DNA of 64,000 nucleotides from a virus. Shown here one piece after another: positions 30,738-59,721 of the stretch (the first letter of the stretch is position 1; each line of letters opens with the position of its first letter). Made by a program: the position numbers and the translations under genes. The notes below the pieces were generated by a model that worked only from the letters and a program-made list of their open reading frames with translations, ran no database searches and was not told the DNA's origin. Location: positions 1-64,000 of the IMG/VR virus record IMGVR_UViG_3300045988_158973; one strand, 5' to 3'.

Positions 30738-33119
30738 TTATTTCCTTGTAATTATTTTCGAACGGTTGAACACGATCATGAACGAGTTTCCGCAGTGATT
30801 ACCGTTAGGCTGGATCATGGCGTCATAACCCTTCAACGCAGCGTATACACCCAATACATCGTCACACGATCGTGCGGCTTGATATATTCCGGCATAAATG
30901 TCCTTGTCGGGATTTCCGACGCTGTTGGTAGCCAATTTACGGGCTGCGTTACGCTTTTCTTGATAGACGCGGAAGGCGTCAGCGCGTTCCTTTTGAAGAC
31001 GGTTTACCTCGTCGTCGAGATTATTGACAGCCTCCTTGACAGCTTCTTCGATACGGCCGTAGTGCTCGCGCATGATCCATTCCTTAAACTGGCGGACGGG
31101 ATAGTTGTACGGACGTGAAAAGCCGCTTTTGCGCTTAATAGCGTTATTCTCGTACCGGTAACGCGAGAACAGAAAACGCTCCGTGGTATTCGGCATTTTG
31201 ATGACCAAATCACCACTGCCGTTATTCTTCTCGGTAATGGTACCGCCATTGGCCGTTACCCAGCCGCGGAGGTGGTTGTTCACGAAATCGTCAAATTTCA
31301 TATAGTCCGGGTTGCCGTCATCGTCGATAGCACCCCAGTCGATGATCTGATCAATCTGCAACGGGATGTCCTTGTAGGCAAAGTCGTCCCAATGCATGTT
31401 GGCCTTAACCTGCTTTTCGGTAGTGTCGGTTAGGGTGTTCAGTTCTTGAGACAACTTGTTGTAGTTATCCTCCGCGTCTTGCTGCTCCTTGAGAGCCTTC
31501 TTGGCTGCAGGAGAAGTGGTGAGCGACAGTTTCTGAATTTCATCACGAGCGTCTTGAACGGTAATCACCTTGGCGGAATCATCCAGTACAGCTTCGATGA
31601 CAGCCCCGTTGTAACCAGCGTAACAACGGGCGTTTTTGTAAGACGATGTGTGCTTGTACCCCGACGGCGTTTTATTGGCGTTATCAGAATCGTTGACGTG
31701 GAAATAGATTCCTTCGCCGTAAACGCTTTGCGTACCGTAGAAACACGCGTCGTTGTACTTGAAGTCGTCAGCGTAATATTCCGTATCGCTGCCGCGCGCA
31801 TTAACGCCACGGAACAGATGGTATTTTGACTGCGCCACCTTGGCCCAGAAGGTATTATCACCTACAACGTCAGGACGCACATCGAAACCGCGGGCCTTGC
31901 AAATATTGGACAGCATCTCCCATCCTACCTGATTATTGGTATTGGTTAACTTGTCCGCAGCACTGATTCCGCTGACGCTACTGTAGATTTCCGCCAACTC
32001 ATCATCGGTGAACTCGCGGTACATTTCCGCATCCGGTTTCAGAGTTCGCGGCGCAACCTTTCTTTGCTGGCGTTGCAACTCTACCTCGTACTGTCCTCTG
32101 ATGCGATCAAGGTCTTTGAAACGAGCCTCGATGATAGCACGCATCTTCGGTTTAGAGGCCAATTTACCAGCGTCGAAAAACGCCAACACCTCGTCTTTGC
32201 GTGCCTTTAAGGCGTCAATTTGGTTGATAAAATCCCGCGGCGTAAGGTTAGCTACAATCTGTGGGTTGTAGTGAACCATGCCGTCCCAGTCGATTTGACT
32301 GTTAAAAGGCTTATTGGCGCCTTGTGCTCGGTAGTCGAACGTACCGCCGTTATCCACGCGATAGACTTTGCCGGCGGCGTCAACCAAGCAGTTGTCATTC
32401 TGGTAGATATCCCAGTTGGCCAAAAAGGCATCAACGGCGAAGCCTTTGGCCATAGCGTCATAGTCCTTGGCCTGCGGCTCACTCATACCGCGCATGTACG
32501 GCGAAATAAGCGTCAAATCGGTTCCGTCGTCGTACATTTCATATTCTGGCGTGTCGAGCCCCAAGAGGTCATAAACCTGCGCGGCGTAGTATTCTGCAGC
32601 AACGTGACCGCGATTAGTGTTTTTAGAACTCTTGACGACAAACTCACGCCCTTTAGAGTCCTTCATGAGTTTGGCTCCAGTACTACCGCCGAGGTCCTGC
32701 ACATAGGTGAGGTCTGAAGGATCGGCAGGGAACATCTCGTTCAACTGCTTCTCTTCCTGAGCCAGCATGGCTTTAGAACGAAAGGCTCCTTTTCCAATAG
32801 GTTGGCCGTTGGCGGTCTTGTAAACTCGCCAGTCGTACGTCGTCTTGGCGTTAGGAGTCAGCGTCCAAATGTACACCACGCCATTCACGACCTTGGTCTG
32901 GCCAGGCATGATGGCTTTGGCTATCTCGGGGTCTTGATCGATACCGTGGATGTGGTCATACACCGATTTGGCGACGTACAGGTTGTACGAATAGTCGTCA
33001 GCAAAGTCTTCAGACCGCGCCTTATACGCTTCACACGCCTTCTCCAGTACGGCATCAGATATCTCGCCCTCAGCGTTACGGAGGGCGAAGACATCGAGTG
33101 CTTTTCTGAGTTCATCCAT
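30738..33119 (-). CDS. large two-domain protein: protein-kinase-like domain plus ADP-ribosyltransferase-like domain (793 aa)
   Basis: Kinase-like region, aa ~138-300: Gly loop plus Lys LGGSTGAKLMKDSKGREFVVK, catalytic-loop-like DAFLANWDIYQNDNCLVD, and DxG-like YRVDNGG. ART-like region, aa ~395-525: YHLFRGV ... YGTQSVYGEGIYFHV ... NGAVIEAVL. Confidence 0.5.
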   Translation of the reverse strand: MDELRKALDVFALRNAEGEISDAVLEKACEAYKARSEDFADDYSYNLYVAKSVYDHIHGIDQDPEIAKAIMPGQTKVVNGVVYIWTLTPNAKTTYDWRVYKTANGQPIGKGAFRSKAMLAQEEKQLNEMFPADPSDLTYVQDLGGSTGAKLMKDSKGREFVVKSSKNTNRGHVAAEYYAAQVYDLLGLDTPEYEMYDDGTDLTLISPYMRGMSEPQAKDYDAMAKGFAVDAFLANWDIYQNDNCLVDAAGKVYRVDNGGTFDYRAQGANKPFNSQIDWDGMVHYNPQIVANLTPRDFINQIDALKARKDEVLAFFDAGKLASKPKMRAIIEARFKDLDRIRGQYEVELQRQQRKVAPRTLKPDAEMYREFTDDELAEIYSSVSGISAADKLTNTNNQVGWEMLSNICKARGFDVRPDVVGDNTFWAKVAQSKYHLFRGVNARGSDTEYYADDFKYNDACFYGTQSVYGEGIYFHVNDSDNANKTPSGYKHTSSYKNARCYAGYNGAVIEAVLDDSAKVITVQDARDEIQKLSLTTSPAAKKALKEQQDAEDNYNKLSQELNTLTDTTEKQVKANMHWDDFAYKDIPLQIDQIIDWGAIDDDGNPDYMKFDDFVNNHLRGWVTANGGTITEKNNGSGDLVIKMPNTTERFLFSRYRYENNAIKRKSGFSRPYNYPVRQFKEWIMREHYGRIEEAVKEAVNNLDDEVNRLQKERADAFRVYQEKRNAARKLATNSVGNPDKDIYAGIYQAARSCDDVLGVYAALKGYDAMIQPNGNHCGNSFMIVFNRSKIITRK

Positions 33120-33125
33120 GGCTGG

Positions 33126-34883
33126 CTATTCGAACAACAGGGTTTCTGCCTTTTCGATCGACATTTCATCAACGTGGAGTGCGCCAAGATCAATCTCTTT
33201 GGCCTTCCACGTATCAGGGATCATGTCTTCAGCACCGAGTGTTTTGGCGCGACGCTTGATCCAGCGGCGAGCGCGTTCGGGGTTCTTAGCGTTGCCGGCG
33301 AGGCGGATGGCGTTCTTCAGATCAGACTTGTTGCGGATCGGGAACGAGCCGTCGGGGAGGGCCTCCTTTTTCTTGGCGAGTTTATCGCGCTGCTCTTCGG
33401 TGAAATCGGCCTTTTCGAGCGATTCTGCGCCGTTAAGTAACTGCTCGGCCTTACTGATCGCGTCGGAGGTTTCGATCGGTTGAATGGCCTCATACGCGAG
33501 ACTCTTCGTCAGCGCACGCACGGCACTCTTCTCCCACTCCTTTTGCTTCGCACCGATGAGGTTCGTCCACTCACCGCCCTGTTGGGCCATACGGTTAGAA
33601 CGTTCCGTAGAGCGTTTTTCTGACAGAATGGTACCGAAAGTACGGGTGGTAAACTTGGCGGGATCGATCTTATCCTTATTCTTGACGATCAAATCGAACA
33701 GCTCTTGGCGTTCGGCCTTGTCCTCTTCAGGATCGTCAAGGTGAGGTGCCTGAGGTACGTCCATACTGGCGAATCGGTCTTTTAGTACCTCGATAGTTTC
33801 ATCAACCGTCAGGTACACCTCCGACGAAAGCGTAGCGCGGCTGATGATAGCTTTAGTATCTTCGTTCTTGGCGAGGTTCACCAAGTCCTTGTTGGTCATG
33901 ATGATGATACGTCCCGTGAATACGAAATTCGACTTGACGTCTTCAGGGTCGCCGACGACGCGTTTACCACTGGCGGCAGTAGCTTTCTTCATGATAGAAG
34001 CCAGGTCGGCGCGGGCGATAACGGAATCGGTATCGTCGAACAGCAGAATCTTGCCGTTGTGGGCCTTGAGTACGCCCAACAGCTGCTTCTTGGAGTTGAT
34101 ATCACCAAGTTCAACGTAGTCATAATCGCCGTCGCCAGGGGCGTCGGTCTCAGCGTCAAACGGACGCTTGTTGAGCAGTTCGGCGATCTTCTTGAAACCG
34201 TACGACTTACCAACGCCTGCGCCTCCGGCCGAGATCATGAAGCGTTGCTCCTTGTTGTCCAAGAACTCCAGATACTGGCGGTTCAGGTCGTACATTACCT
34301 CAACGGGCGGCTGGTAGTCGGGGTCCTTACGCTTCATCTTGTAGACGAAACGGTCGTAGGCGATACGGTCTTGGCGGTTCTGGAGTTTGTTGAATTTCTT
34401 CTGAACACGCGGGTCCTCGGGGTTGAGGAACCAGTCTTCCATAATCTCGCCATCGACGTTTTCACCTTCGCCGTCGTTAATATCAACCTTGTCTTGGGCG
34501 TTAGTAGGCGCAACGTCGTCCTGCTTGGAGGTCATCTTCAGCAGCGCGTCGAGTGTACCGGAGGTATCAACAGCCGAAGCGTCGAATTCGTCACGCGTCT
34601 TCAACTCCTCATAGGCGATCTTACGCAACTGCGCGTTGCCCTTGGGGTTGTTTACTACTTTGAGCAGATTGTCTGCGGAGGTACGCTTGGCCCACTCTTC
34701 AAGGCTGGCGGAACCGCCAGCAGAACCCGATTTACCTTCGTCGGCGGCAGGAGCCTTCTTGTTCTTGGCGTTTTTGTCGAGACGCCAGTTAAACTTTCCC
34801 GGCTTGTATTCGGTCCAAACCCACGGCTGTGTAGGGTGGTGGTCGCCGACGTTGTGTTTTGCTTTTTGGATAATGTCTGACAT
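33126..34883 (-). CDS. AAA+/P-loop ATPase (585 aa)
   Basis: Walker A ISAGGAGVGKSYGF, Walker B KILLFDDTD, sensor-like RIIIMTNKD and ISRATL. The C-terminus carries the motif ALPDGSFPIRNKSDLKNAIRLAGNAKNPERARRWIKRRAKTLG. Confidence 0.65.
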   Translation of the reverse strand: MSDIIQKAKHNVGDHHPTQPWVWTEYKPGKFNWRLDKNAKNKKAPAADEGKSGSAGGSASLEEWAKRTSADNLLKVVNNPKGNAQLRKIAYEELKTRDEFDASAVDTSGTLDALLKMTSKQDDVAPTNAQDKVDINDGEGENVDGEIMEDWFLNPEDPRVQKKFNKLQNRQDRIAYDRFVYKMKRKDPDYQPPVEVMYDLNRQYLEFLDNKEQRFMISAGGAGVGKSYGFKKIAELLNKRPFDAETDAPGDGDYDYVELGDINSKKQLLGVLKAHNGKILLFDDTDSVIARADLASIMKKATAASGKRVVGDPEDVKSNFVFTGRIIIMTNKDLVNLAKNEDTKAIISRATLSSEVYLTVDETIEVLKDRFASMDVPQAPHLDDPEEDKAERQELFDLIVKNKDKIDPAKFTTRTFGTILSEKRSTERSNRMAQQGGEWTNLIGAKQKEWEKSAVRALTKSLAYEAIQPIETSDAISKAEQLLNGAESLEKADFTEEQRDKLAKKKEALPDGSFPIRNKSDLKNAIRLAGNAKNPERARRWIKRRAKTLGAEDMIPDTWKAKEIDLGALHVDEMSIEKAETLLFE

Positions 34884-34917
34884 ACGTTGTGCAGTTTTCC
34901 AATAAATACTTGGAATC

Positions 34918-35727
34918 CTACACTTCTACAGCGTCAAAGTCAATATCAAACTTCTTGTACACAATACGCAACTCCGGAACGCCGTTTATGGGTTTCTTCT
35001 TTTCGTCAACACGAGCGTTAAGCGGCCAACGCTTCAAGATAATATCGTGAGCACGCTGTACACGCTCTTGACGCTTGTATACGTCTTGAAGACCGCCGCC
35101 TTGAGTGGCTTCCTTGTTCATTTTGCTCTGGAGAAGGAAACGCACGAACCGCGCATACACGATACCGAGGTACATGCACTTCAACGAATAGTCGATATCA
35201 CACTTCAACTCCAACTTTTCGTCAAAATCCAGTTCCAGCGTGCGTAAGCCTTTGAACACGATGAGGTGAGGGATGCCGCCGTATTTGAAGCGAGGGCTGA
35301 CGTCGGTGCAGTTCCAGTCAAACGCGCTCTTCCCCATGGTCCCGTACTCGAAGTCGGTTTCCATGACTTCGCGGTTGAACTCTTCGAAGAATTCAGCCAA
35401 CTCTTCAGGGGTTTTCAACGAAAGCCCGCATTTGGCTTCGCCGTCAATCGAATAGAAGAAGTTGGCGATATCGTCATCCATGACCACTACCGGGCGCCCC
35501 TCGTGCAGATAGGTGTTCTTACAGAAATTGACTACATAGCTGTAGCCACGATTCGATGCCGGTAGCACGATAAGGCGTTCACGCTCGTGACCCGCTTCGA
35601 CGTATTTCTCGACGTCTTCTTTCTCGACTACGATGTGATAGTCGACGCCGCCCTTTTTCAGCAGTTTGGTCGTGACGCATTTAGGGCGGTTCTTGGACAC
35701 GACGAAGAATTGACAATTCATACTCAA
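34918..35727 (-). CDS. GT-A-like glycosyltransferase, copy 1 (269 aa)
   Basis: Rossmann-like start FFVVSKNRPKCVTT, DxD-type VVVMDDDIANF, and a C-terminal QGGGLQDVYKRQ...RWP. It is a paralogue of 53123..53938 and is reminiscent of TET/JBP-associated glycosyltransferases of phage DNA-modification loci. This was not verified by a search. Confidence 0.5.
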   Translation of the reverse strand: MSMNCQFFVVSKNRPKCVTTKLLKKGGVDYHIVVEKEDVEKYVEAGHERERLIVLPASNRGYSYVVNFCKNTYLHEGRPVVVMDDDIANFFYSIDGEAKCGLSLKTPEELAEFFEEFNREVMETDFEYGTMGKSAFDWNCTDVSPRFKYGGIPHLIVFKGLRTLELDFDEKLELKCDIDYSLKCMYLGIVYARFVRFLLQSKMNKEATQGGGLQDVYKRQERVQRAHDIILKRWPLNARVDEKKKPINGVPELRIVYKKFDIDFDAVEV

Positions 35728-36404
35728 AACGGTAAGTCACCCTCGTACCAAATTTCCTCGGGTGGGTTTTGTTCTATAAAACGTTGATATTTGTTCATCG
35801 TAGGCTCTAACGACGGATAAAAGCGCAGCGCCAGTTCCCACTTAACGTCGAACATATCGCCAACATCAACCCGGCGTTTCATCAACAAACTTTCGCTGCC
35901 GTAGCACTGGACTTGAATCTGGCTACAACCGCGGCGCGTGTACGAATACGGAAAGTCGCGATAGTATTCCGCCCCGGACGCCGTATCATACACCGTATCG
36001 TGCACAAACTGGTTGAAGGGGTTGCCTGCACCCAACGGCGCTAACAGGGTGTATCCGGGGTTGCGGCGCATAAACTTACGCAAATAATCGCGAAGCGTTT
36101 GTTCGGCGAAATTAAGCCCATCAGTCCCGAATTTAGCGCGAAGGTACATATAGACGCTTTCGTAGCTATAATCCCTGTAATGGGTCTTGAAATCGCTGCA
36201 ACGGACATCTTCTAACTCCAAGTCCAGACAGTCCGCGCCGATTCCCAGAAAATCGTACAATTTACGCTGTTCAGCGAGCGACGATGGCGCGTTATCAACA
36301 GTAAGCACCCGAACGTCGTATTCGGGTGCTACTAAAACGTGACAAGCGCTCATCAGGAGATCACCCGCGTGCGGCTCGACACAGAGGTACTTTATTTTTC
36401 CCAT
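35724..36404 (-). CDS. PIG-L/LmbE-like de-N-acetylase (226 aa)
   Basis: N-terminal KYLCVEPHAGDLLMSACHVL resembles the (A/P)HPDD zinc-binding motif of the LmbE/PIG-L family, with a later FVHD. 4-nt overlap with the downstream GT gene. Confidence 0.42.
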   Translation of the reverse strand: MGKIKYLCVEPHAGDLLMSACHVLVAPEYDVRVLTVDNAPSSLAEQRKLYDFLGIGADCLDLELEDVRCSDFKTHYRDYSYESVYMYLRAKFGTDGLNFAEQTLRDYLRKFMRRNPGYTLLAPLGAGNPFNQFVHDTVYDTASGAEYYRDFPYSYTRRGCSQIQVQCYGSESLLMKRRVDVGDMFDVKWELALRFYPSLEPTMNKYQRFIEQNPPEEIWYEGDLPF

Positions 36405-37351
36405 GGCCGTTTGTAAATCTTCTCAGCGCACGGGCCGTCCTTCGATACGTCTTCAGCCATACGGCGAATTTCAGGCGTAATAGGCGGCAGCGTTTTCTTG
36501 CCCATTTTGTCAGGCAGGAATCCGACGCGGACGCTGACGTGTGTACACCCTTGACACGGCCGGAAACGGCGGTCATTGTTGTACAGCATAACGCGAGCGG
36601 CGTGAAAACGCGGATGGTTCCAAAGGTCCTCGATAGGCATATCGTGGATATTGGCGATAGGGTATTCGCCGCGGAAGTCGTCACAGCACAGACACACCTG
36701 GCCATTCCAACGCACATCCAGTTCACGGAACGGGAAGGTACAGCGCTTGTTGTTGAACGAATCGTCGAGCGGGAACGCTGCACCGCAGTGATTGGCCAGG
36801 CGACGCGTCATCTTGTTGGTATCGTCTTCGGCGATAGGCGGCAGCAGGCAGATACGACGCCCCTGCTTGGGATAGTAGTACGGAACGCCCGGTTCCAGCG
36901 TGACGACGTTGTACTTTTCAACGTCGATCTTCTTGACGAAGTTCCAGTCGCCGTTGGCTGTGTAGCAGTCAACCAGTATGTCGTTCATGCCGGCCTCGAA
37001 CAGGCGGTCGAGGTACTCGGACGTGTCAGCGGCGTGGTTCATGGCGTAGCCGTTGCTGTACATATGAAATACGGCCTTCGGTAAGTGCTTGCGGAACGTA
37101 GCCACGATGTCGATGAACGCGGGGTTAAGCGTCGGCTCGCCGTGCATAGCGAACACGAACTTACAGTTCCACCCCACGCGTGCCACCTCCGAAGCAATAC
37201 GCTCGGCGGTTTCAACGGTCATGAAATTCCACGGTTTAGTCCCTTTTTCGCGCATACCGTGAAGACCACAGAACGAACACCCCAGATTGCACCCCTCGGT
37301 CGGCTCGATCTGCATGGTAAACGGGGGGTCTTGTACGATTTTGTTTTTCAT
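36392..37351 (-). CDS. radical SAM enzyme with C-terminal Cys-rich (SPASM/twitch-like) extension (319 aa)
   Basis: Canonical CxxxCxxC in EPTEGCNLGCSFCGLHG. Later Cys clusters are CTFPF...VCLCCDDF...RPCQGCTH. The start codon shares 1 nt with the MuF stop codon. Confidence 0.8.
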   Translation of the reverse strand: MKNKIVQDPPFTMQIEPTEGCNLGCSFCGLHGMREKGTKPWNFMTVETAERIASEVARVGWNCKFVFAMHGEPTLNPAFIDIVATFRKHLPKAVFHMYSNGYAMNHAADTSEYLDRLFEAGMNDILVDCYTANGDWNFVKKIDVEKYNVVTLEPGVPYYYPKQGRRICLLPPIAEDDTNKMTRRLANHCGAAFPLDDSFNNKRCTFPFRELDVRWNGQVCLCCDDFRGEYPIANIHDMPIEDLWNHPRFHAARVMLYNNDRRFRPCQGCTHVSVRVGFLPDKMGKKTLPPITPEIRRMAEDVSKDGPCAEKIYKRPWEK

Positions 37352-38283
37352 TATTTGGTAACTTTAATGTTAAGTTTCACGTTCTTTAACTTTGGGTTCT
37401 TGAATTGACGCTTAACTGGCTTGGTGAAGGCGCGTGTTGCGGGGTCCCATTCGAAGCCGTCAGGAACGAAGTTGATCGTACACCGACAGTAGGGGTGCGT
37501 TGGGTCAATCGTCGGGAGCCATTCAGCTACTTTGCGTCCAATATTGTTACCGTTGGCAATAAGGTCTGCCAAGCGGAACAGTTTCGGCTTTGAGTTGAGG
37601 TCTTCAGGGTCTTCCAAGTACAATTCACGACATTTGGCACACGCGCCGGGGTAAACGTCGAAATACACCTTGGCGTCAGGGCCGTGTTGCTTGAAAATAC
37701 TTTCAGCGCGGCCTACATTGTAGGCTTCATGGAGAAGGTAATACGCAATACGCAGCCAATCACGCCCCCAGTCTTGGGTAAGGTTCCCCAGTTCGCTGGC
37801 TATATACCGCGCTCCCTTACGGAGTTGAACGGCTTGAATGGCCTTGTCTTTGATTTGCTGGCGTATTGCCGATTGCTGACGAAAGTTCGACTTGAGTACA
37901 GCGTTGCGCGTTCCGGTGACGATCCGGTTGCCGAGCGACGTGATGTCGGTATAGGCGCGGTTCTTGAGGTAGTTCAGCGCGTTTTCTTCCTGTTCAGTGA
38001 GTGGAACGAAGTTTCCCGATTTCAAGAACTGGAGAAACTGCTTGTAGTTCATCTTCTTGGCGCGTGTGTCACCGATTGCTTCAGCTAAGATTCCAAACAA
38101 AAAGGCGTGTTCGATGATACCCTTTGAGTTCTTGTACTTATCGACGTTGACGCCCGACGCTACCAAGATATCAATTTCAGACTGCGTAAGGTAGTCCAAT
38201 CCGACGTGTTTGGCAATAAAGAGATACTGCCAACGTCGGAGAATACCGACCATGTCGTCTATTTGGCGGTTGTTGAAAATCAT
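37351..38283 (-). CDS. MuF / SPP1 gp7-like minor head protein (310 aa)
   Basis: C-terminal signature PGACAKCRELY...LPTIDPTHPYCRCTINFVP is typical of the Phage_Mu_F family. Confidence 0.72.
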   Translation of the reverse strand: MIFNNRQIDDMVGILRRWQYLFIAKHVGLDYLTQSEIDILVASGVNVDKYKNSKGIIEHAFLFGILAEAIGDTRAKKMNYKQFLQFLKSGNFVPLTEQEENALNYLKNRAYTDITSLGNRIVTGTRNAVLKSNFRQQSAIRQQIKDKAIQAVQLRKGARYIASELGNLTQDWGRDWLRIAYYLLHEAYNVGRAESIFKQHGPDAKVYFDVYPGACAKCRELYLEDPEDLNSKPKLFRLADLIANGNNIGRKVAEWLPTIDPTHPYCRCTINFVPDGFEWDPATRAFTKPVKRQFKNPKLKNVKLNIKVTK

Positions 38284-39452: not shown

Positions 39453-39624
39453 CCTCGTTTAGTTCTTTAACCGCCGCAGCCGTAGCGTCGGCGATGTATT
39501 TCAAGACATCACCGAGCGCCGCGGCGTTATTGGCGTTCCATTCCTTAATGAATCGGTTCTCGTATTGAGTAACGGTGGGGAATGGCGACGGAAGGAAGTG
39601 TGTATGTTTGGCGTTGTAGGGCAT
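39406..39624 (-). CDS. hypothetical protein (72 aa)
   Basis: Intact co-oriented ORF whose start shares nt 39624 with the stop of the upstream gene. Overlaps the next ORF by 47 nt, so one of the two starts is uncertain. Confidence 0.3.
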   Translation of the reverse strand: MPYNAKHTHFLPSPFPTVTQYENRFIKEWNANNAAALGDVLKYIADATAAAVKELNEDETKKGNLGHTVNED

Positions 39625-41687
39625 TACTCTTCGGTGTTACCGCCGTAGATTTCGAGGAACTTGTCGACGAATTCCTTGTTGGTGCGTTTCATTACCTCGA
39701 TTTGCGCGTCAACCTTCTTGCGGTATTCTTCCGGATCATACTCCCCGCGAAGCGAATCGCGTGCAGCCTGACGCTCGTCAGCGATTTTCTTCAACTCAGG
39801 ATGGTTGAGGAGTTCTTGGCCAACGCCCTTGTCGCGCGACTGCGGATCGGTAAGCGAATTGAGGCTCAAAGCAGCACGCTGGGCCTCCTTGTCGCCGGAT
39901 GCGATCCTTGCTTTCAGAGCGCGGGCAATGCCTTCAGGATTCTTGGCGATCATCTTGGCGTACTCAGCCGGATCAGCCCCTCTGCCGGTTTTCTTGATGA
40001 ATTTATCGGCTGCAGCGTTATCCTTCTCAGGCGAAGACTTTGTAGCTTTGTCGGCCTTGGTGCCCTTTTCAGCACTCTTCACTTCAGCCTTGGCGGCAGC
40101 ATCAGCCTTCTTACCTTGCTTGGTAGCGCTTTCCTCCTCACCGCCGATCAGCGCGTCGAGTTCCTTCTGGCCGTCCTTCGATACCTTCACGCCAGCCATC
40201 TCGAACATATTGGCGATGGTGTCGGCAATTTCGTCGTCCGTAGCGTCGGACTGAGCACCACCAGTGTCAACCGGATTTGCTTTCATGGCTGCAGCCAGCT
40301 CCTTGATGGCCTTGGCGTCGCCTTTCTGCTTTACGAAGGACTTGAAGCCTTCAGTGTCGAAGTCGGTGTCGTTTTCAGCCATGTCGTCGAAACTTTGAAC
40401 GAGGCCCTCGGCGCTGCTGACCTTACCGTCGTCGTTGGCGTCAGCGCGCATCTTGTCGAGCGTGGCTTGGCCTTTCTTCGAAAGTTCGATACCGGCTTCT
40501 TCGAAGATGTTGGCGATCTCGTCAGCGATTTCATCGTCGTTCAAATCGCTCTGAGCCGATTCAGCCTCGTCGGATGCCTTGATGGCGGCGACGAGTTCCT
40601 TGATGGCCTTGGCCTCGCCCTTGTTGTCGATGAGGCTTTCGAGCGCTGCGCCGAAGTCATCGTCTTCACCCGACTCCGAAGTGTAGGCGTCCCACTTGGC
40701 CAGAACGCTTTCACCCGACCCGCGAAGGTTGTCGAGTTCCTTCTTGGCCTCACGCGGTACGCGCGTTCCGGCCTCTTCGAACATATTCTCGATCATGTCG
40801 GCGATCTCGTCGTCAGCCAGATCACTTTGCCCGGCCTCGCTGGGCATCTTACGGATGGCGTCGGCGATTTCCTTCACGGCCTTACCGCCTTTTTCCTTCA
40901 CGAACGATTTGAACGACTTGGCGTCGAAGTCTGCATCGCCCTCAGCCATAGCGTTGAAACTGTCAACGAGCGATGCGGCGTCAGCCTTTCCGCCCTTACC
41001 CTTGGCGTCGGGATCGCCAAACTTAGACGCGGCTCCCTCAACGTCGCCGATCTCCTTCACCGTCACCGACTCGAAATTGTCCACGTCGGCGTAGGGGTAT
41101 TTGTCCACGCGGTAGCCCTCGCTGGTCTTGGTGACTACAAGGTCGAAGCCGTCTTCGTCACCGCCGATCTGCTTGATGAAGGCGTGCGAAGCGTCCTCAA
41201 CTCCGGCGTACTGCTGGAGGTCCTGATCGTCCATCTGACGGAAGCCCATGCCCTCGAACGTCGATGCCGATTTGGCGTCACCGTCAGCCAGCCCGTTACG
41301 CAGCGACGTGTCGCCGTTCTTGTTCTTGGCGCGAACGCTTACACCGCGGCGTTCCAATTCAGCGGTAGCCACCTTGCGCATTTCGGGGTCAGCCTGCGGA
41401 TCGTTGGCAACCTTCGTCAGCGCCTCCTCCGAAGCCTGACGAGCGTGGTTCTGGAGGCTGACATTTCCCTCAGGCATACCACCCTCCTGGCCTTCGCCTT
41501 CAGGGTCTTCCTTGGCGGCTTGGCCGTACTCCTGTCCCACGCGCTGCAGACGACGGTTTTGAGCGTTGTCGGTGTAGACACCGTGACGCGCTTTTTCGAT
41601 CGGCTCTTCCGCGGCCTCCTCGGGGTTGGTGAACCCTTTAAGAATTTGCTGGCGACGCGCTTCGCCGTAGTTGATAACTTCTTTCAT
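39624..41687 (-). CDS. acidic repeat-containing protein, possible internal head / scaffold-like protein (687 aa)
   Basis: Three tandem ~90-aa repeats, very D/E/K/A-rich, and an N-terminal EKAR...NRRLQRVGQEYG motif. The mirror plus-strand ORF is rejected. Confidence 0.6.
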   Translation of the reverse strand: MKEVINYGEARRQQILKGFTNPEEAAEEPIEKARHGVYTDNAQNRRLQRVGQEYGQAAKEDPEGEGQEGGMPEGNVSLQNHARQASEEALTKVANDPQADPEMRKVATAELERRGVSVRAKNKNGDTSLRNGLADGDAKSASTFEGMGFRQMDDQDLQQYAGVEDASHAFIKQIGGDEDGFDLVVTKTSEGYRVDKYPYADVDNFESVTVKEIGDVEGAASKFGDPDAKGKGGKADAASLVDSFNAMAEGDADFDAKSFKSFVKEKGGKAVKEIADAIRKMPSEAGQSDLADDEIADMIENMFEEAGTRVPREAKKELDNLRGSGESVLAKWDAYTSESGEDDDFGAALESLIDNKGEAKAIKELVAAIKASDEAESAQSDLNDDEIADEIANIFEEAGIELSKKGQATLDKMRADANDDGKVSSAEGLVQSFDDMAENDTDFDTEGFKSFVKQKGDAKAIKELAAAMKANPVDTGGAQSDATDDEIADTIANMFEMAGVKVSKDGQKELDALIGGEEESATKQGKKADAAAKAEVKSAEKGTKADKATKSSPEKDNAAADKFIKKTGRGADPAEYAKMIAKNPEGIARALKARIASGDKEAQRAALSLNSLTDPQSRDKGVGQELLNHPELKKIADERQAARDSLRGEYDPEEYRKKVDAQIEVMKRTNKEFVDKFLEIYGGNTEE
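40140..40973 (-). repeat. three tandem ~270-nt coding repeats (aa ~239-516 of the 687-aa protein)
   Basis: Repeat core: DFD..FKSFVK.KG.AKAIKE.A.A.K......QSD..DDEIAD.I.NMFEEAG......G.KELD. Copies start near aa 239, 331 and 427. Confidence 0.8.
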
Positions 41688-47087: not shown

Positions 47088-47411
47088 TCAACACAACAGT
47101 TTCAAAATGTCGTTCCGTGCCGTTTGCCTGATAATCAGAGCCCGATGGACGATATCGCCCCACACAGCCACCTGATAACCATTCCACGTGAAATAGTCCG
47201 TCTGGTCGTCATACGAACCATTCCATTCACCGTCGTGACGTATATCAACGATCAAACGATCAAACCGCGCTTTTTCTTCCGTGGTGAAGGGTGTTATGAA
47301 AGTGCCGACGACTACTAATCGTGCGGCACTCGTAGACAGGTCATCGGCCATAATCTGAAAGTCGATACCCATAAAATCGCCCGTTTCAAGAGGCGTGTGA
47401 AAGGTTATCAT
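47088..47411 (-). CDS. hypothetical protein (107 aa)
   Basis: Intact ORF with a 4-nt overlap to the upstream gene. Confidence 0.4.
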   Translation of the reverse strand: MITFHTPLETGDFMGIDFQIMADDLSTSAARLVVVGTFITPFTTEEKARFDRLIVDIRHDGEWNGSYDDQTDYFTWNGYQVAVWGDIVHRALIIRQTARNDILKLLC

Positions 47412-48418
47412 TGCCCCACTAATTTACGAGTTTGAGGTTCAAATGTAGAACGCTGCTTACCTTCGCCAATACGCATTTTCCAATACTTTTGGTACTCACA
47501 CAGCCACATTTCCACCTGATGAAGCGTTATTTCTCCCACACGCGATACGCGGTAACGCCACCCGGCGCGGTCCCAGTGTAGGTATGGGAAATTACCTAAC
47601 TTCGCCAACTCGTCGCGTGATTCATCGCGCAGGCGATATATTCCATCCACCTGACGTTTCAACGACGGAAATATCAACCGCAACCCAATCGAGGCGCCAG
47701 GCCCTACGTTGGTATAGTCGTCTTGAGTAAAACGCATGAAACGACGCGTGGTGTAGCGTGATATGTAGGTGAAGTCTTGGTAAAATTCGTGAGCGATGAA
47801 TGTAGCCGATGAAGGTAAACTGCGTAAAAACCTGATGATCTGTTCGGGGGTTTCAGCCGCCAATACCGTCCGTATCAACTCACCCAAGCGCTGGTGTAAC
47901 GTGGGAACCACCAAGTGCGTGTAGCAGTAGTCGCGCGGTTTACCGGGCGTGGCCATCGAATTGATCAAATACGCCGTGGTGTAAGGGTTGTTTCCCGACG
48001 CACGGTACGCAGCTATCATCTCTGCGAAGCGATCTTCGTCGTATTGGTCGTAATCCGGAATTCCCGCCTTCCAACCATATCGTTCTTGAGCGAATTCGAA
48101 CGTTGCAGGATTATTGAAGTACCGAAACACCATCGTCTTCCAAACCAAATTCGTCAACGAAAGTAGCGGATCGAGGATGATGTTTCGTATTTGCCACTGC
48201 GAATTGCGGTCCAACTCGCGGTATACGTTGGTGAACTTATAGTCCCTTAAGATCGGATCTTCGGTCCACGGACGCGGCGCTCCATCCAAGAAGCGGCGTT
48301 TCCATATCATCTGGCGCTCGAACATCGTTCTGAAGAACTCCGAGCGGTGCTCTTCGCTCACGTCCAGCGTTTCATCAGGTAGCTTATCTGCCCACGCATA
48401 ATTATCAAAGGTCGCCAT
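47408..48418 (-). CDS. aGPT-pyrophosphorylase-like DNA base (thymidine) hypermodification protein (336 aa)
   Basis: N-terminal FERQMIWKRRFLDGAPRPWTEDPILRDYKFTNVYRELDRNSQW matches, from memory, the hallmark W.RR...PWT.DPIL..Y.FTNVYRE.DR.T region of the alpha-glutamyl/putrescinyl thymine pyrophosphorylase families. A profile search is needed. Confidence 0.6.
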   Translation of the reverse strand: MATFDNYAWADKLPDETLDVSEEHRSEFFRTMFERQMIWKRRFLDGAPRPWTEDPILRDYKFTNVYRELDRNSQWQIRNIILDPLLSLTNLVWKTMVFRYFNNPATFEFAQERYGWKAGIPDYDQYDEDRFAEMIAAYRASGNNPYTTAYLINSMATPGKPRDYCYTHLVVPTLHQRLGELIRTVLAAETPEQIIRFLRSLPSSATFIAHEFYQDFTYISRYTTRRFMRFTQDDYTNVGPGASIGLRLIFPSLKRQVDGIYRLRDESRDELAKLGNFPYLHWDRAGWRYRVSRVGEITLHQVEMWLCEYQKYWKMRIGEGKQRSTFEPQTRKLVGQ

Positions 48419-51568: not shown

Positions 51569-51849
51569 TCCATCACCAAATTACCTTCACACTCCAAGGC
51601 ATACAACCGTTCAGCGTCTGGTTTGGCGTAACAGAATATCAATTTACCGCCGCCAGCGGCTTGTAGTGCCTTACGGTATGCAACCTTGATACGCTGAAAG
51701 GTTTCACTCCTGTAAAAGTCGTAGTCGCTGACGCATATCTCCCACCACCGTTCTTGGCGTGACGCCCAGGAAATTACTCCTGGGCGTTCGGCTTCGATTC
51801 GCTTTACAGCGGCCAACATCAACGAACCGTGTCGGCGATCTGGTTTCAT
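51562..51849 (-). CDS. hypothetical protein (95 aa)
   Basis: Intact ORF with a 4-nt overlap to the upstream gene and a 7-nt overlap to the downstream gene. Confidence 0.4.
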   Translation of the reverse strand: MKPDRRHGSLMLAAVKRIEAERPGVISWASRQERWWEICVSDYDFYRSETFQRIKVAYRKALQAAGGGKLIFCYAKPDAERLYALECEGNLVMDC

Positions 51850-52433
51850 AACGTTTCGTCGAGGTTTTGAGCCAGTTCAGCCAACAGTTTCACGTGTACA
51901 CGCTCGTCAGCAATAATCTTGTTAATCAACTGAACGGCCAACGTAGAAGTCACGGTCGGCGTAGGGTTGCTGGATTGAATGCGCTGGATGAGTTTCTCGT
52001 ACGAAGTGATGGTGTCTTGCTCGGCGCGGAGGTTGATCATCACCGCTTCGATGGGACTTTCGGTCGTAATGTTCACTTTGGCTGCCGAAAACACGGGCTT
52101 CGATACGGCGTGACCCAGATGAGCGATGAAGTCGCCTAAACGATCGTAGTGCTTCATTTCGGTCAGCGCGATTCCCAAGAACGTTTCGCCAATCTGGTCG
52201 AAAAGCATTCGCTGCTGCGTGTACTGGAGAATGGCCGTGAGTTCCGACGTCTCGTTGATGCCGGCGTATGCCTTGTAGAACCACTCGGCCGGAACGCCAT
52301 CGTCGGCTTTGGCCTTGGAAATATCCGGATAATCGACTACATGGTCGGCGAAGCGCATCGACTCTACCATGGCGTCAGCCATCGCTTCGACGTTATCCTG
52401 TTTGGCAGGATTGTGTAAGAGTATCGTTTTCAT
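51846..52433 (-). CDS. ferritin-like di-metal (Mn-catalase/CotJC-like) protein (195 aa)
   Basis: Duplicated E...ExxH ligand pattern: SELTAILQY ... ALTEMKHYDRLGDFIAHLG and AEQDTITSY ... IADERVHVKLL. Confidence 0.6.
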   Translation of the reverse strand: MKTILLHNPAKQDNVEAMADAMVESMRFADHVVDYPDISKAKADDGVPAEWFYKAYAGINETSELTAILQYTQQRMLFDQIGETFLGIALTEMKHYDRLGDFIAHLGHAVSKPVFSAAKVNITTESPIEAVMINLRAEQDTITSYEKLIQRIQSSNPTPTVTSTLAVQLINKIIADERVHVKLLAELAQNLDETL

Positions 52434-52445
52434 GAGTTACGAGTA

Positions 52446-53126
52446 TTAATATCCACCGTCCGTGGTGTGACCGTCGTTATCGATACGTTTCCAGTAGCCG
52501 CAGTCCTCGCACTGGTAAAGAACCGTGTCGTCTAAGTCCTTCGTTACCGACATCGGCGAGCCGCAGCGCGGGCACGGTTTCACGTCTTCGTCCCACACGG
52601 CACGCGGTGTTTCCTTTTTGACCGTTGACCCGAAACCACCCGTGTCGCGCTTCGACGGAGTGAGTTCTTCAACCCAACCGGACTCAATTTGGGGCGCAGG
52701 CACGATGACCAGCTGGGCTACGACATCACCGACGGCGAACGCCTTGGAATGTATCGGGCGGGGATTGACACAGAGTTTTCCGACTCCGTGACTATACGTC
52801 TGTAGTTTACCGGCAATCTTCTGCCACAGCGTCGGTGCGTGGAAGACGTTTTTGTAGCGAGCGCGCATCGTACCACGATACCCCGGATCGATCACCCCCG
52901 GCGCGTTACACATCACCAGGTCCTTTTTCGAACAGCGCGAATTGGGGACCAAAAAGCCGCAGTACCCCTTGGGTATTTCAACGGCCACGCCAGTGTCGTA
53001 TTCGATGTAGTCTTCGGTTTCCTCGATCGACACAGCCACGAGGTCCAGTCCGTTGTCTTCGCCGTCGGGGTGAGCGTATGTCGGGAGAACAGCGTTGGGG
53101 TGTACTTTCTTGAATTTTACGTTCAT
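52446..53126 (-). CDS. dut: trimeric-type dUTPase fused to a C-terminal zinc ribbon (226 aa)
   Basis: All five dUTPase motifs are present: I PTYAHPDGEDNGLDL, II PNSRCS, III GVIDPGYRG, IV GDVVAQLVI, V RDTGGFGST. There is a ~45-aa insertion between motifs III and IV. The C-terminal Zn ribbon is CPRCG-x17-CEDCG. Confidence 0.82.
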   Translation of the reverse strand: MNVKFKKVHPNAVLPTYAHPDGEDNGLDLVAVSIEETEDYIEYDTGVAVEIPKGYCGFLVPNSRCSKKDLVMCNAPGVIDPGYRGTMRARYKNVFHAPTLWQKIAGKLQTYSHGVGKLCVNPRPIHSKAFAVGDVVAQLVIVPAPQIESGWVEELTPSKRDTGGFGSTVKKETPRAVWDEDVKPCPRCGSPMSVTKDLDDTVLYQCEDCGYWKRIDNDGHTTDGGY

Positions 53127-53938
53127 TTCTTGTATCCTTTTAAGTGTATTTTGACTTCGATCATTTCACGATCCTTCATTTCGCCACCCCAGTTGGTGCA
53201 CCGCTTGGTACGAAGGGTGATATACTCGGGGAACGCTTCTCTTAAACGTTGTGACTCGGCATTGGAGTTCTCGATAGTTCGATACACGGAGCAACCGCCA
53301 GCGGCGTTGGCTCCTGTCATTTTATCGAACGAATACTGGTACGAAACCACGTTATCCAATCCCGCACGGCGTAAGCCACACGCCACCGCAAAATCTTCCT
53401 TGATGGGCCACTCGCTGAATCTCACAGGCTGGCTCAGATACTGCTCGATGTTCAGCCCCCAAATGGAGAAGAACCGCCCGTTGATCTGTACGTCGTGTTC
53501 CTTATCGCGGTTGAAAGGACGGTACGAAAGCGCCGCCACGGCATAGGTGTCCAGCTGTTCAGCCACCCAGTCGAACATCATCGAGTAGATATATTCTTGA
53601 GCCTCGACGGTGAAATTGTCGTTGTTTATGACTACAGGGGTCTTGGCATCGTCTAAACGTAGCGAGAAAGACACGTTATCGTCTAAAAAGAAGACTCCGC
53701 CAAATCCCCGATTTTGGGCCTCTACAACAATGTAGTCGCGTATATCCCCCACGCCGCGACACGCCGTGCTGTATTCCTCGATGCCGCCAACCTTACCGCC
53801 CCAGTTACGGCGATGAACCGCCAATTCGCCGGGGTGACAGAATACGGTCACGCGCCGACGCGCTTCAGGAGTGAGACGTTGAAGGGTTTTCTGACGGTCA
53901 ACACGACCACGAGTGAATAGTGCTATCAGAGTTTTCAT
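53123..53938 (-). CDS. GT-A-like glycosyltransferase, copy 2 (271 aa)
   Basis: IALFTRGRVDRQKT, DxD-type VFFLDDNVSF, and C-terminal AAGGCSVYRT...AFPEY. Paralogue of 34918..35727. 4-nt overlap with the dUTPase gene. Confidence 0.5.
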   Translation of the reverse strand: MKTLIALFTRGRVDRQKTLQRLTPEARRRVTVFCHPGELAVHRRNWGGKVGGIEEYSTACRGVGDIRDYIVVEAQNRGFGGVFFLDDNVSFSLRLDDAKTPVVINNDNFTVEAQEYIYSMMFDWVAEQLDTYAVAALSYRPFNRDKEHDVQINGRFFSIWGLNIEQYLSQPVRFSEWPIKEDFAVACGLRRAGLDNVVSYQYSFDKMTGANAAGGCSVYRTIENSNAESQRLREAFPEYITLRTKRCTNWGGEMKDREMIEVKIHLKGYKK

Positions 53939-59683: not shown

Positions 59684-59721
59684 TTTACGATAATTTTGAT
59701 TGTTGATGATTATGGGGTTGT

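Follow-up and report, generated by a model that had tools for sequence, protein, structure and literature searches.

A recurrent phage gene cassette encoding a radical SAM enzyme, an LmbE/PIG-L-fold protein and a TAGT-family glycosyltransferase, with a predicted role in remodeling a sugar on DNA

Results

Gene layout of the cassette

We analyzed three tightly packed genes of an uncultured phage of approximately 100 kb, within a stretch of 64,000 nucleotides (the window). All three open reading frames (ORFs) lie on the minus strand, at the coordinates given in a preliminary description, between two genes listed here as context:

37351..38283, minus strand: MuF-like minor head protein, 310 aa, directly upstream of the radical SAM gene (context)
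36392..37351, minus strand: radical SAM enzyme (rSAM), 319 aa, with a predicted C-terminal twitch/SPASM-type auxiliary Fe-S domain
35724..36404, minus strand: LmbE/PIG-L-fold protein (middle ORF), 226 aa, with a degenerate active-site motif
34918..35727, minus strand: TAGT copy 1, a GT-A glycosyltransferase, 269 aa from a TTG at 35727 or 267 aa from an ATG at 35721
33126..34883, minus strand: P-loop protein, 585 aa, matching phrog_1250 (1.9e-11) and weakly AAA_30, with the Walker A motif GGAGVGKS (context)

The preliminary description had chained these genes to each other and to MuF by overlapping stops and starts, and most of this layout is borne out. The last A of the MuF TAA stop is the A of the rSAM ATG (TAATG, a 1-nt overlap), and the 13-nt overlap between rSAM and the middle ORF (36392..36404) is kept in 24 of 24 close relatives. 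The 4-nt overlap described for the middle ORF and the glycosyltransferase (GT) gene holds only if the latter starts at TTG 35727. Since that start is absent from three relatives (L021-L023), in which the GT starts at the ATG equivalent to window position 35721, a stop followed by 2 nt and an ATG is the more likely junction, and it leaves the genes tightly packed. ORF lengths are conserved across 24-25 loci, with median pairwise dN/dS values of 0.031 (rSAM), 0.153 (middle ORF) and 0.020 (GT). These are genuine genes under purifying selection and not chance ORFs. Because we found no excess of promoter-like or terminator-like sites between 33 and 42 kb, the site pattern appears consistent with co-transcription in a long late-gene block rather than with a private three-gene operon. 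Homologs of the P-loop protein also come after the cassette in relatives, and always do so in the approximately 100 kb phage family.

The upstream 310-aa ORF has no Pfam match and is weakly similar to phrog_595, annotated as head maturation protease (6.9e-5). Its C-terminal HPYCRC motif and its position after the portal gene are, we presume, those of the Phage_Mu_F family. Relatives have an intein inserted at the Cys of this motif (L014, 676 aa).

The radical SAM enzyme resembles BtrN

The assignment of the first protein to the rSAM/SPASM enzymes agrees with profile searches, which matched Pfam Radical_SAM (PF04055; 61.2 bits against a cutoff of 29.5, 1.7e-16) and SPASM (PF13186; 47.3 bits against a cutoff of 21.5, 2.6e-12). 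The CNLGCSFC cluster recognized previously corresponds to C21-x3-C25-x2-C28 and is invariant in all full-length homologs aligned. The protein thus carries both marks of the radical SAM superfamily, as it has the CX3CX2C motif and clears the curated profile cutoff.

A full SPASM domain, with two auxiliary clusters, has seven Cys in the pattern CX9-15GX4C ... CX2CX5CX3C ... C. The rSAM conserves five C-terminal Cys (204, 222, 223, 266 and 269) and its CX2CX5CX3C block is cut down to C266-x2-C269, a pattern that by sequence is that of a single-cluster 'twitch' domain. The NCBIfam N_Twi_rSAM profile matches this region at 6e-11, below its cutoff. Using phmmer, we found that the best relative of solved structure is BtrN (4m7t, 1e-8), followed by anSME (2e-6). 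In the alignment to 4m7s/4m7t, from which the BtrN residue numbers are taken, C204, C222, C266 and C269 lie opposite BtrN C169, C187, C232 and C235, which we take to be the ligands of the auxiliary [4Fe-4S] cluster of BtrN. The rSAM sequence therefore fits the BtrN-type four-Cys arrangement predicted to bind one auxiliary [4Fe-4S] cluster. No NCBIfam equivalog matched at its cutoff (best 48.5 bits against 380). BtrN-type twitch dehydrogenases oxidize a secondary alcohol on a carbohydrate-like substrate by two electrons, and BtrN and anSME both turn an alcohol (or thiol) carbon into a carbonyl; SPASM/twitch enzymes more often act in the maturation of peptides or proteins.

The middle protein has an LmbE/PIG-L fold and a degenerate active site

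By itself, the middle protein of the window had no direct match in Pfam or PHROG. Its family, for which we gathered 87 representatives, matches PIG-L (PF02585) in 14 of 52 aligned members (best 3.7e-16), and the family profile matches Dbv21 (3dfi, 5e-12) and Orf2* (2x9l, 6e-11), the two GlcNAc deacetylases from the teicoplanin and A40926 pathways. Furthermore, when the window protein was modeled with AF2 (pLDDT 93.8), the teicoplanin deacetylase 2xad came out as the top Foldseek match (7.4e-8, TM 0.60) and only strong PDB match, and the BFVD matches included viral 'LmbE-like' and PIG-L proteins. The family profile and the model together place the protein in the LmbE/PIG-L superfamily, as defined by a Rossmann-like fold and profile-level homology to characterized members, and the LmbE-like ancestry suggested in the preliminary description is upheld.

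The active site is another matter. In the LmbE motif, H-X-D1-D2 plus a further H, the catalytic metal is bound by D2 and both His, and D1 acts as general base (PMC4101496). The EPHAGD stretch (residues 10-15), previously read as an HxxD motif like that of de-N-acetylases, is in fact a degenerate form of this motif (H12-A13-G14-D15) in which Gly14 stands in place of D1 and Asn131 in place of the His that serves as third metal ligand. The window thus reads PH-A-G-D...G-N-P-F-N against a family consensus of PH-S-D-D...G-H-P-x-H. D1 and the third-ligand His are absent from 25 of 25 close-clade sequences, all with Gly and Asn at these positions. L021-L023 have Gln in place of the first ligand His, and position 128, a His in the family and Asn in the window, is N, Q or H within the close clade. 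Across the wider family the degenerate motif positions are at least 90% conserved, and orthologs in related phages carry the complete motif. The ORF nevertheless remains intact, at 226-227 aa across 25 loci. Sequence on either side of the former pocket motifs is still conserved, and the window protein retains His12 and Asp15, which are mostly kept in the clade. The dN/dS of this ORF exceeds that of the flanking rSAM and GT genes 5- to 7-fold.

Because the general base and the third metal-ligand His have been lost, a deacetylation step in the window phage is doubtful, and in its clade the middle protein is probably no longer a canonical deacetylase. Since His12 and Asp15 are mostly kept, it might retain activity through a non-canonical site; relatives with an intact motif may well deacetylate. 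These data bear on the pathway first proposed, in which the GT adds GlcNAc, the LmbE-like protein deacetylates it and the rSAM performs radical chemistry, leaving an amino-sugar adduct on DNA. Taken literally, we consider this pathway unlikely. The confirmed fold, the two retained residues, the intact gene under a dN/dS of 0.15 and the complete motif in related phages speak for it, as does the GT-then-LmbE deacetylase order that is universal among characterized LmbE enzymes (PMC4101496); the clade-wide replacement of D1 and the third ligand, the variation at position 128 and at the first ligand, the strong conservation of the lost positions elsewhere in the family and the elevated dN/dS all argue against it.

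Two divergent TAGT-family glycosyltransferases

The earlier GT call held up well. TAGT copy 1 matches Pfam TAGT (TET-associated glycosyltransferase, PF20691) at 50.3 bits (cutoff 27.5; 3.8e-13) over profile positions 3-203 of 205 and phrog_842, 'beta-glucosyl-HMC-alpha-glucosyltransferase', at 2.4e-18. It also has the GT-A DxD motif (D84-D85-D86, after a hydrophobic VVVM strand), so that it shows both features expected of the family, the motif and a score exceeding the curated profile threshold. No homolog of copy 1 was found in GenBank phages by tblastn. The T6-type enzyme, which places a second glucose on glucosyl-hmC DNA, belongs to the TAGT family (PMC13390438).

The second GT mentioned in the preliminary description was also located, together with two other genes relevant to DNA modification:

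53123..53938, minus strand: TAGT copy 2, 271 aa, adjoining a terminase gene (Pfam TAGT 6.7e-13, phrog_842 7.1e-28)
52446..53126, minus strand: dUTPase/dCTP-deaminase-like protein, 226 aa, with a C-terminal zinc ribbon, adjoining TAGT copy 2
47408..48418, minus strand: 5-hmdU DNA kinase (5-HMUDK; Pfam HMUDK_hel 175.6 bits, 1.8e-51)

TAGT copy 2 is highly divergent, with no similarity to copy 1 detectable by BLASTP and with LDDN in place of DxD. The dUTPase-like protein matched Pfam dUTPase (2.2e-8), DCD (5.3e-5) and zinc-ribbon families.

A 5-hmdU kinase points to hydroxymethylated DNA

5-HMUDK is a marker of the thymidine hypermodification pathway based on 5-hydroxymethyl-dU (PMC8989533, PMC5889632). 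Since no dUMP/dCMP hydroxymethylase, thymidylate-synthase-like or TET/JBP gene was found in the 64 kb window or the 7 kb beyond its end, it is the single gene there that points to hydroxymethylpyrimidines. 5-HMUDK normally feeds aGPT-Pplase chemistry. An aGPT-Pplase-like gene had been suggested for this DNA, yet no Pfam match to aGPT-Pplase was detected in the 45 window ORFs scanned with HMMER profiles, a set that takes in all minus-strand ORFs from 170 aa upward and the majority of smaller ones (five of 111-166 aa were left out) and a method that remote homologs below its sensitivity could escape. Both absences count against a sugar on DNA. No PLP enzyme was found in the window either.

The preliminary description also took the position of the cassette in the head module as a pointer to a virion-protein target. 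This argument does not hold, as the genes for 5-HMUDK, TAGT copy 2 and the dUTPase-like protein are themselves interspersed with terminase and portal genes across the genome.

The cassette recurs in unrelated phages

The preliminary description called for a survey of gene-neighborhood conservation. We found that 181 IMG/VR stretches encode an rSAM homolog, and we examined 79 of these loci plus 7 from other sources. Dereplication leaves 39 lineages, spread over three or more unrelated phage backbones, and a GT lies within approximately 3.5 kb of rSAM in at least 34 of the 39. Of 24 close loci, 20 keep the full trio, and four have, in place of TAGT, a protein of approximately 480 aa whose GT-B signatures are weak and below Pfam thresholds. 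Furthermore, one relative (P0015/L003) encodes a 534-aa rSAM::LmbE fusion and several others encode LmbE::TAGT fusions (P0022/L004/L005, L065, L071 and L098). Given these fusions and the conserved synteny, our sequence comparisons indicate that the three proteins are tied together functionally, as first supposed.

The coupling to MuF fared less well: the overlap is real in the window phage but confined to its lineage. MuF lies beside the cassette in the head module in 19 of 39 rSAM lineages and is not found nearby in the other 20, and in two loci (L007 and L008) other genes intervene between MuF and rSAM. We asked whether the cassette might instead act on a virion protein, with the rSAM modifying the Cys of the MuF-like HPYCRC motif by anSME-like or thioether-type chemistry and the GT glycosylating a head protein. 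The overlap, the 19 lineages with adjacent MuF, the similarity of rSAM to the protein-modifying anSME and the preference of most SPASM enzymes for peptides or proteins would suit such a target, and the adjacency to that extent counts against DNA. We nonetheless regard a virion-protein target as very improbable: the adjacency is accounted for by synteny within one phage family and can be broken by other genes, TAGT is a DNA-glycosylating family, and in the 20 lineages without MuF the rSAM keeps company with TAGT, 5-HMUDK, ThyA-like, dUTPase or replication genes.

Indeed, 5-HMUDK or a ThyA-like gene lies within 8 kb of rSAM in 18 of 39 lineages. Unrelated phages of 35-55 kb carry TAGT, rSAM, a small kinase and a thymidylate-synthase-like gene in that order within the replication module, other loci have the order 5-HMUDK, TAGT, rSAM, ThyA-like, and in L092 a canonical dUTPase directly follows the rSAM homolog. 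Of the two candidate targets named earlier, these neighborhoods favor DNA bases over virion proteins.

Such neighborhoods also raise the question of whether the rSAM acts on the base itself, oxidizing the 5-hydroxymethyl of 5-hmdU to 5-formyl-dU or activating the 5-methylene, with the GT and LmbE-like protein in a separate branch or on a later adduct. The alcohol-to-carbonyl chemistry of its closest solved relatives would fit, and so would two loci (L102 and L103) with 5-HMUDK, rSAM and ThyA-like in order and no GT by custom HMMs, the L092 arrangement, and a locus with no detected partner (L101). The GT adjacent in at least 34 of 39 lineages argues for another role, as does the fusion of rSAM to the sugar-acting LmbE fold in L003. 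On closer look, L109 has a TAGT and a GT-B-like gene, and an ORF in L102 and L103 shares the N-terminal signature of that GT-B-like protein, neither having a Pfam match. Direct action on the base is in our judgment a long shot, and a sugar substrate is favored.

Discussion

Given the TAGT family of the GT, the neighborhoods of rSAM and the 5-HMUDK, second TAGT and dUTPase-like genes of the window, DNA is the favored target. We think it fairly probable that the trio attaches and remodels a sugar on 5-hydroxymethylpyrimidines of the phage DNA, most probably 5-hydroxymethyl-dU, after replication. In the pathway that we infer, from its DNA target and sugar to its order of steps and radical chemistry, the phage DNA would carry 5-hmdU, as the 5-HMUDK and dUTPase-like genes suggest. 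TAGT would transfer a sugar from a nucleotide sugar, either to the 5-hydroxymethyl group or to a first sugar placed by the second TAGT. Since every characterized LmbE enzyme acts on GlcNAc or an N-acyl-GlcN core (PMC4101496), the sugar of the ancestral pathway is most plausibly a HexNAc. The BtrN-like rSAM, with its SAM cluster and one auxiliary [4Fe-4S] cluster, would abstract a hydrogen from the DNA-linked sugar and then oxidize, epimerize or otherwise rearrange it. Where relatives keep the H-x-D-D...H motif intact, their LmbE protein would de-N-acetylate the sugar, whereas in the window clade the LmbE-like protein most likely persists without catalytic function, as a subunit that binds sugar or serves as an adaptor within the rSAM/GT machinery. 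Because this protein has lost its general base and one metal ligand, the final adduct in the window phage would probably retain its N-acetyl group.

Several known systems share parts of this logic. T-even glycosylation, including the T2/T6 enzyme of the same Pfam family as the cassette GT (PF20691), and the 5hmC GT clusters of metagenomic phages described by Pyle et al. likewise place a GT on a hydroxymethylpyrimidine or its sugar after replication, and HexNAc, the sugar predicted here, is among those known on phage DNA. Their 5hmC is derived from TET or dCMP hydroxymethylase, whereas the context of the cassette is 5-hmdU. Published clusters of phage DNA-glycosylation genes can lie among structural genes, and that study mentions no radical SAM enzyme, deacetylase or LmbE protein (10.1101/2023.12.21.572611).

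The thymidine hypermodification of M6, ViI, SP10 and PhiW-14 shares 5-HMUDK with the window. In the M6-type pathway, 5-HMUDK and aGPT-Pplase are followed by an rSAM isomerase, a PLP decarboxylase and others (PMC8989533, PMC5889632), so that, as proposed here, a group is appended to 5-hmdU in DNA and then sculpted by a radical SAM enzyme. That pathway has an aGPT-Pplase and a PLP enzyme, neither of which was found in the window. Moreover, M6 gp53 is a spore-photoproduct-lyase-like rSAM that lacks SPASM/twitch and acts on an amino-acid adduct, while the cassette rSAM is BtrN-like with a predicted sugar adduct, and tblastn at 1e-5 found no homolog of the latter in M6 or SP10.

The same enzyme folds co-occur in MshA/MshB, BshA/BshB, PIG-A/PIG-L and the butirosin and teicoplanin systems (BtrM/BtrD with the rSAM dehydrogenase BtrN; Orf2*/Dbv21), BtrD being a member of the LmbE family (PMC4101496). 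At identities of about 12-23%, this likeness is one of shared folds and logic, not orthology. These modules act on lipid, inositol, aminocyclitol or glycopeptide, whereas the acceptor of the cassette is predicted to be DNA; MshA and BshA are GT-B enzymes and the cassette GT is a GT-A TAGT; and the catalytic motif that defines the modules is lacking in the window LmbE-like protein.

Phage DNA hypermodifications set resistance to restriction enzymes, CRISPR and type IV defense, and have yielded useful enzymes for epigenomic work. The pathways known so far follow two routes: some glycosylate hydroxymethylpyrimidines, and others append amino acids or polyamines and then tailor them. In the literature searched, we found no description of rSAM, an LmbE-like protein and a DNA-type GT in combination. 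We tentatively raise the possibility that a widespread type of phage DNA hypermodification has gone undescribed. In it, a BtrN-like rSAM, variably with an LmbE deacetylase and FkbM-type methyltransferases, would remodel a 5-hmdU-linked sugar on DNA, and in the window lineage the deacetylase would have turned into a pseudo-enzyme subunit. If so, this would be a third logic, with a DNA-borne sugar tailored by radical chemistry and, in relatives, also by de-N-acetylation and methylation. It would bring aminoglycoside-style tailoring to a nucleic acid, with keto-, amino- or deoxy-sugar adducts, and mark the first case of radical SAM chemistry on a sugar carried by DNA. Recurring in 39 lineages on at least three unrelated backbones, the cassette is no one-off. 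It predicts new nucleoside structures, and its intact, fused and degenerate LmbE variants form a natural series on the path from pathway enzyme to pseudo-enzyme.

Organization and conservation of the cassette

We found three ORFs on the minus strand, which carries almost all genes of this phage genome segment, exactly where the preliminary description had placed them (34918-37351), directly downstream of a MuF-like gene.

Cassette genes and the upstream gene (window coordinates)
37351..38283, minus strand: MuF-like ORF, 310 aa, stop codon TAA
36392..37351, minus strand: ORF 1, radical SAM (rSAM) protein, 319 aa
35724..36404, minus strand: ORF 2, LmbE-like protein, 226 aa
34918..35727, minus strand: ORF 3, TAGT copy 1, 269 aa from a TTG start

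The described junctions largely held. The last A of the MuF TAA is the A of the rSAM ATG, giving the shared nucleotide, and the rSAM and LmbE-like genes overlap by 13 nt. The 4-nt overlap between ORF 2 and the glycosyltransferase gene exists only with the TTG start; since three relatives (L021-L023) lack the TTG and start at the counterpart of window ATG 35721, the likelier junction is a stop, 2 nt and then ATG 35721. Promoter-like and terminator-like sites were not enriched in window 33-42 kb, and the three genes are best regarded as belonging to a long late block transcribed together. ORF lengths are kept in 24 close relatives (IMG/VR and Logan), among which median pairwise dN/dS is 0.031 for the rSAM gene, 0.153 for the LmbE-like gene, and 0.020 for TAGT copy 1. 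These conserved lengths and low dN/dS values show that all three cassette genes are real.

Within a phage family of approximately 100 kb genomes, the cassette always lies between a MuF-like gene (before) and a P-loop protein gene (after), while its content is variable. The order rSAM, LmbE, TAGT is found in this window as well as in 20 of the 24 close loci; the commonest variant in the family is rSAM, LmbE and a protein of approximately 480 aa with weak GT-B signatures, and further variants carry an added FkbM-type or N6/N4-type methyltransferase. Natural fusions join rSAM to LmbE (534 aa, locus L003) and LmbE to TAGT (approximately 500-525 aa; L004, L005, L065, L071, and L098), which supports a functional link among the three genes. 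The richest variant seen, in locus L112 (5487..10701), is a compact cluster of a 5-hmdU DNA kinase (5-HMUDK), TAGT, LmbE-like (204 aa), rSAM, a second rSAM paralog, and a second TAGT, with a ThyA-like gene 3 kb beyond. Loci L020 and L022 belong to one 199,131 bp contig, IMGVR_UViG_3300029572_000001, which contains the cassette twice; the spacing of 100,780 bp suggests a head-to-tail dimer of a genome of approximately 100.8 kb.

The region has a mosaic history. Across window 30738..37351, dS relative to locus L010 is 0.7-1.5 for the trio and 0.008-0.026 for the flanking genes of the 585-aa P-loop and 793-aa proteins, and the reverse pattern appears against L033 (L033/L067), with identities of 97-100% for the trio and only 84% for the 585-aa protein. 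The junction of the glycosyltransferase gene and the 585-aa gene is the apparent site of a recombination breakpoint. In L014 (3971..6001) and also L016, L024, L030, and L032, the MuF-like protein (676 aa in L014) is interrupted by an intein-like insertion precisely at the Cys of the conserved HPYC|RC motif; the 310-aa window copy has no such insertion.

TAGT copy 1 and its replacement

ORF 3 matches phrog_842 and, above cutoff, Pfam PF20691 (TAGT), and carries DDD at residues 84-86, in agreement with its earlier designation as a DxD-type glycosyltransferase. The TAGT family includes the T6-type enzyme credited with placing the second glucose on glucosyl-hmC DNA (PMC13390438). Four close relatives (L026-L029; for example L028 7622..9109) carry the approximately 480-aa protein at the same position in place of TAGT. 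Across the phage family at large this protein is 48-80% identical; its profile had no match in the PDB, and it is only probably a GT-B enzyme, its weak Pfam matches (Glyco_transf_4 and Glycos_transf_1) being below threshold. Since the two proteins never occur together in one cassette among the loci surveyed, the alternation looks like a glycosyltransferase swap.

The rSAM protein resembles BtrN

ORF 1 scores above the curated cutoffs for both Pfam Radical_SAM and SPASM. The preliminary description of a SPASM protein with extra C-terminal cysteine clusters is thus right as to the domain match, but the C-terminal region holds five conserved cysteines rather than the seven that a complete SPASM domain has. 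Invariant cysteines are C21/C25/C28 together with C204, C222, C223, C266, and C269. By sequence, the closest solved structure is that of the butirosin radical SAM dehydrogenase BtrN (1e-8), followed by the anaerobic sulfatase maturase anSME (2e-6). C204, C222, C266, and C269 align with four BtrN cysteines that we take to be its auxiliary-cluster ligands. No NCBIfam equivalog came near its cutoff. Given the cysteine count, the BtrN match and the lack of an equivalog, ORF 1 is classed as a twitch-type, BtrN-like rSAM. A role in RiPP maturation was rejected, as the gene lacks an accompanying conserved ORF for a small precursor and is constantly paired with genes for glycosyltransferases and nucleotide metabolism.

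Among 50,697 GenBank phages, tblastn recovered as rSAM homologs only distant Campylobacter phage 'BtrN' genes (22.7% identity). In Campylobacter phage vB_CjeM_WX1 (108721-121482), the 'BtrN protein' lies among several radical SAM genes, an amidinotransferase, and an aminotransferase, and no LmbE or TAGT profile matched the cluster. We dropped it as a related system, since it is a different multi-rSAM cluster.

The LmbE-like protein has lost catalytic residues

The ORF 2 sequence itself had no match in Pfam, PHROG, or NCBIfam and no direct PDB match, and a profile of the close clade only retrieved nothing from the PDB. An exhaustive profile search yielded a family of 87 representatives; Pfam PIG-L is matched by 14 of 52 aligned members (best E-value 3.7e-16), and the family profile matches the GlcNAc deacetylases of A40926 (5e-12) and teicoplanin (6e-11). 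An AlphaFold model from the 52-sequence alignment (pLDDT 93.8) had one strong PDB match, the teicoplanin deacetylase 2xad (7.4e-8, TM 0.60); an earlier AF2 model from 8 sequences (pLDDT 65) gave generic Rossmann matches only and was uninformative. The LmbE-like ancestry originally read from 'EPHAGD' is thereby confirmed.

The LmbE superfamily motif is H-X-D1-D2 plus a His, with the metal bound by two His and D2 and with D1 as general base; characterized members all act on a GlcNAc or N-acyl-GlcN core (PMC4101496). In the phage family the consensus is PH-S-D-D ... G-H-P-x-H, with positions invariant or at least 90% conserved, and orthologs from less closely related phages, both types of fusion among them, keep the full motif. 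The window protein instead has H12-A-G14-D15 and G-N128-P-F-N131. Thus the HxxD motif marks descent from de-N-acetylases, but it is degenerate: D1 and the third ligand are absent from 25 of 25 close-clade sequences, position 128 varies among H, Q, and N, and the first His is replaced by Gln in three.

Non-synonymous evolution in this degenerate clade is 5-7 times faster than in two neighboring genes, with variation focused on residues 37-80 and 161-185. Nevertheless, we rejected a decaying pseudogene because the ORF is intact in 25 loci (226-227 aa), pairwise dN/dS reaches at most 0.26, and the regions flanking the motifs are conserved (30/36, 13/18, and 13/17 invariant positions in segments around the former pocket). 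Our reading of these sequences is that the window protein would be a pseudo-enzyme that still binds something, neither a canonical deacetylase nor a dead gene.

Genomic neighborhoods favor a DNA target

The proposed neighborhood survey covered 79 IMG/VR loci, collected through a diverse rSAM alignment, with neighbors annotated by profiles built from sequences in hand; dereplication of the rSAM homologs left 39 lineages. A glycosyltransferase lies within approximately 3.5 kb in at least 34 of the 39. LmbE is present in 20 lineages and MuF in 19, and 18 have a 5-HMUDK or thymidylate-synthase-like (ThyA-like) gene within 8 kb.

The informative associations are those outside the 100 kb family. Phages of 35-55 kb have TAGT, rSAM, a small P-loop kinase, and a ThyA-like gene, in that order, within a replication module (DNA polymerase A, PD-(D/E)XK nuclease, and SNF2 helicase). 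Other phages have 5-HMUDK, TAGT, rSAM, and ThyA-like; in locus L109, 5-HMUDK is followed at some distance by TAGT, rSAM, an FkbM methyltransferase, a GT-B-like gene, and ThyA-like, and in L092 rSAM precedes a dUTPase.

Further genes of the window
59387..59785, minus strand: HU-type DNA-binding protein
53958..56675, minus strand: large terminase subunit (phrog_38, 2.9e-53), split by an intein
53123..53938, minus strand: second TAGT, very divergent
51846..52433, minus strand: ferritin/rubrerythrin-like protein, near the second TAGT and a dUTPase-like gene
47408..48418, minus strand: 5-HMUDK (1.8e-51)
39624..41687, minus strand: very acidic 687-aa protein with three internal repeats of approximately 35 residues, QSD..DDEIAD.I.N.FE.AG...

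The window itself encodes 5-HMUDK, the second TAGT, and a dUTPase/dCTP-deaminase-like gene. Together with the rSAM neighborhoods, these point to glycosylated 5-hydroxymethylpyrimidine in DNA as the most likely substrate of the cassette, the base probably being 5-hmdU; of the two targets first proposed, DNA bases are therefore favored. A virion protein had been suggested from the head-module location, and adjacency to MuF keeps this reading alive. However, the DNA-modification genes are interleaved with the intein-bearing terminase gene and the portal gene, so position is no argument for a protein target, which we consider improbable. In published work, phage DNA-glycosylation clusters likewise lie among structural genes (10.1101/2023.12.21.572611).

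Neither a hydroxymethylase nor a TET gene was found in the 64 kb window or in the 7 kb that follow, the latter read in a near-identical contig (L114) from translated ORFs judged by inspection, which revealed no recognizable thymidylate-synthase-like gene past the window end. The aGPT-Pplase-like gene of the preliminary description was not recovered among 45 window ORFs, a set that takes in all minus-strand ORFs of 170 aa or longer; 5-HMUDK is thus present without a detectable aGPT-Pplase among the ORFs scanned.

The terminase intein contains Hint and LAGLIDADG homing-endonuclease domains. The acidic 687-aa protein had no family match; encoded between portal and MuF, it could serve as a scaffold or as an internal protein of the head. 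The ferritin-like protein could have to do with supplying iron to the Fe-S enzyme or shielding it from oxygen.

Proposed pathway and relation to known systems

On a DNA target, a TAGT would move a sugar onto the hydroxymethyl group or onto one that the other TAGT has already added. The BtrN-like rSAM might then take a hydrogen from the DNA-borne sugar and oxidize or rearrange it. Cys223, an additional invariant cysteine next to a cluster ligand, could be a hydrogen-atom donor; speculatively, this would point to epimerization. In relatives with an intact LmbE the sugar would be de-N-acetylated, implying a HexNAc, while in this phage the LmbE-like protein would probably be a binding or adaptor subunit only. 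Aminoglycoside and mycothiol pathways offer a parallel set, namely GlcNAc transfer, LmbE deacetylation (BtrD), and BtrN oxidation; the likeness is one of folds and logic, not orthology.

TAGT was reportedly named in a 2013 survey by Iyer et al., which possibly noted LmbE or rSAM neighbors. Our full-text literature search, which did not reach that survey, found no LmbE/PIG-L or SPASM enzymes tied to phage DNA modification, and the DNA glycosyltransferase literature examined does not mention a radical SAM or LmbE partner. A radical SAM enzyme is known from DNA hypermodification, M6 gp53, which is SPL-like and isomerizes a glycine adduct (PMC8989533), but it is unrelated to the window rSAM family. 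Against the 50,697 GenBank phages, megablast with the cassette region and tblastn with ORF 2 and TAGT copy 1 returned nothing, and these searches revealed no cultured phage with the cassette; by portal protein, the closest cultured relative is Chryseobacterium phage MA9V-3 (40%), followed by SPO1-like phages. We rate the system as a probable form of DNA glycosylation after replication whose tailoring enzymes had not been described before, and the cassette is both widespread and directly testable.
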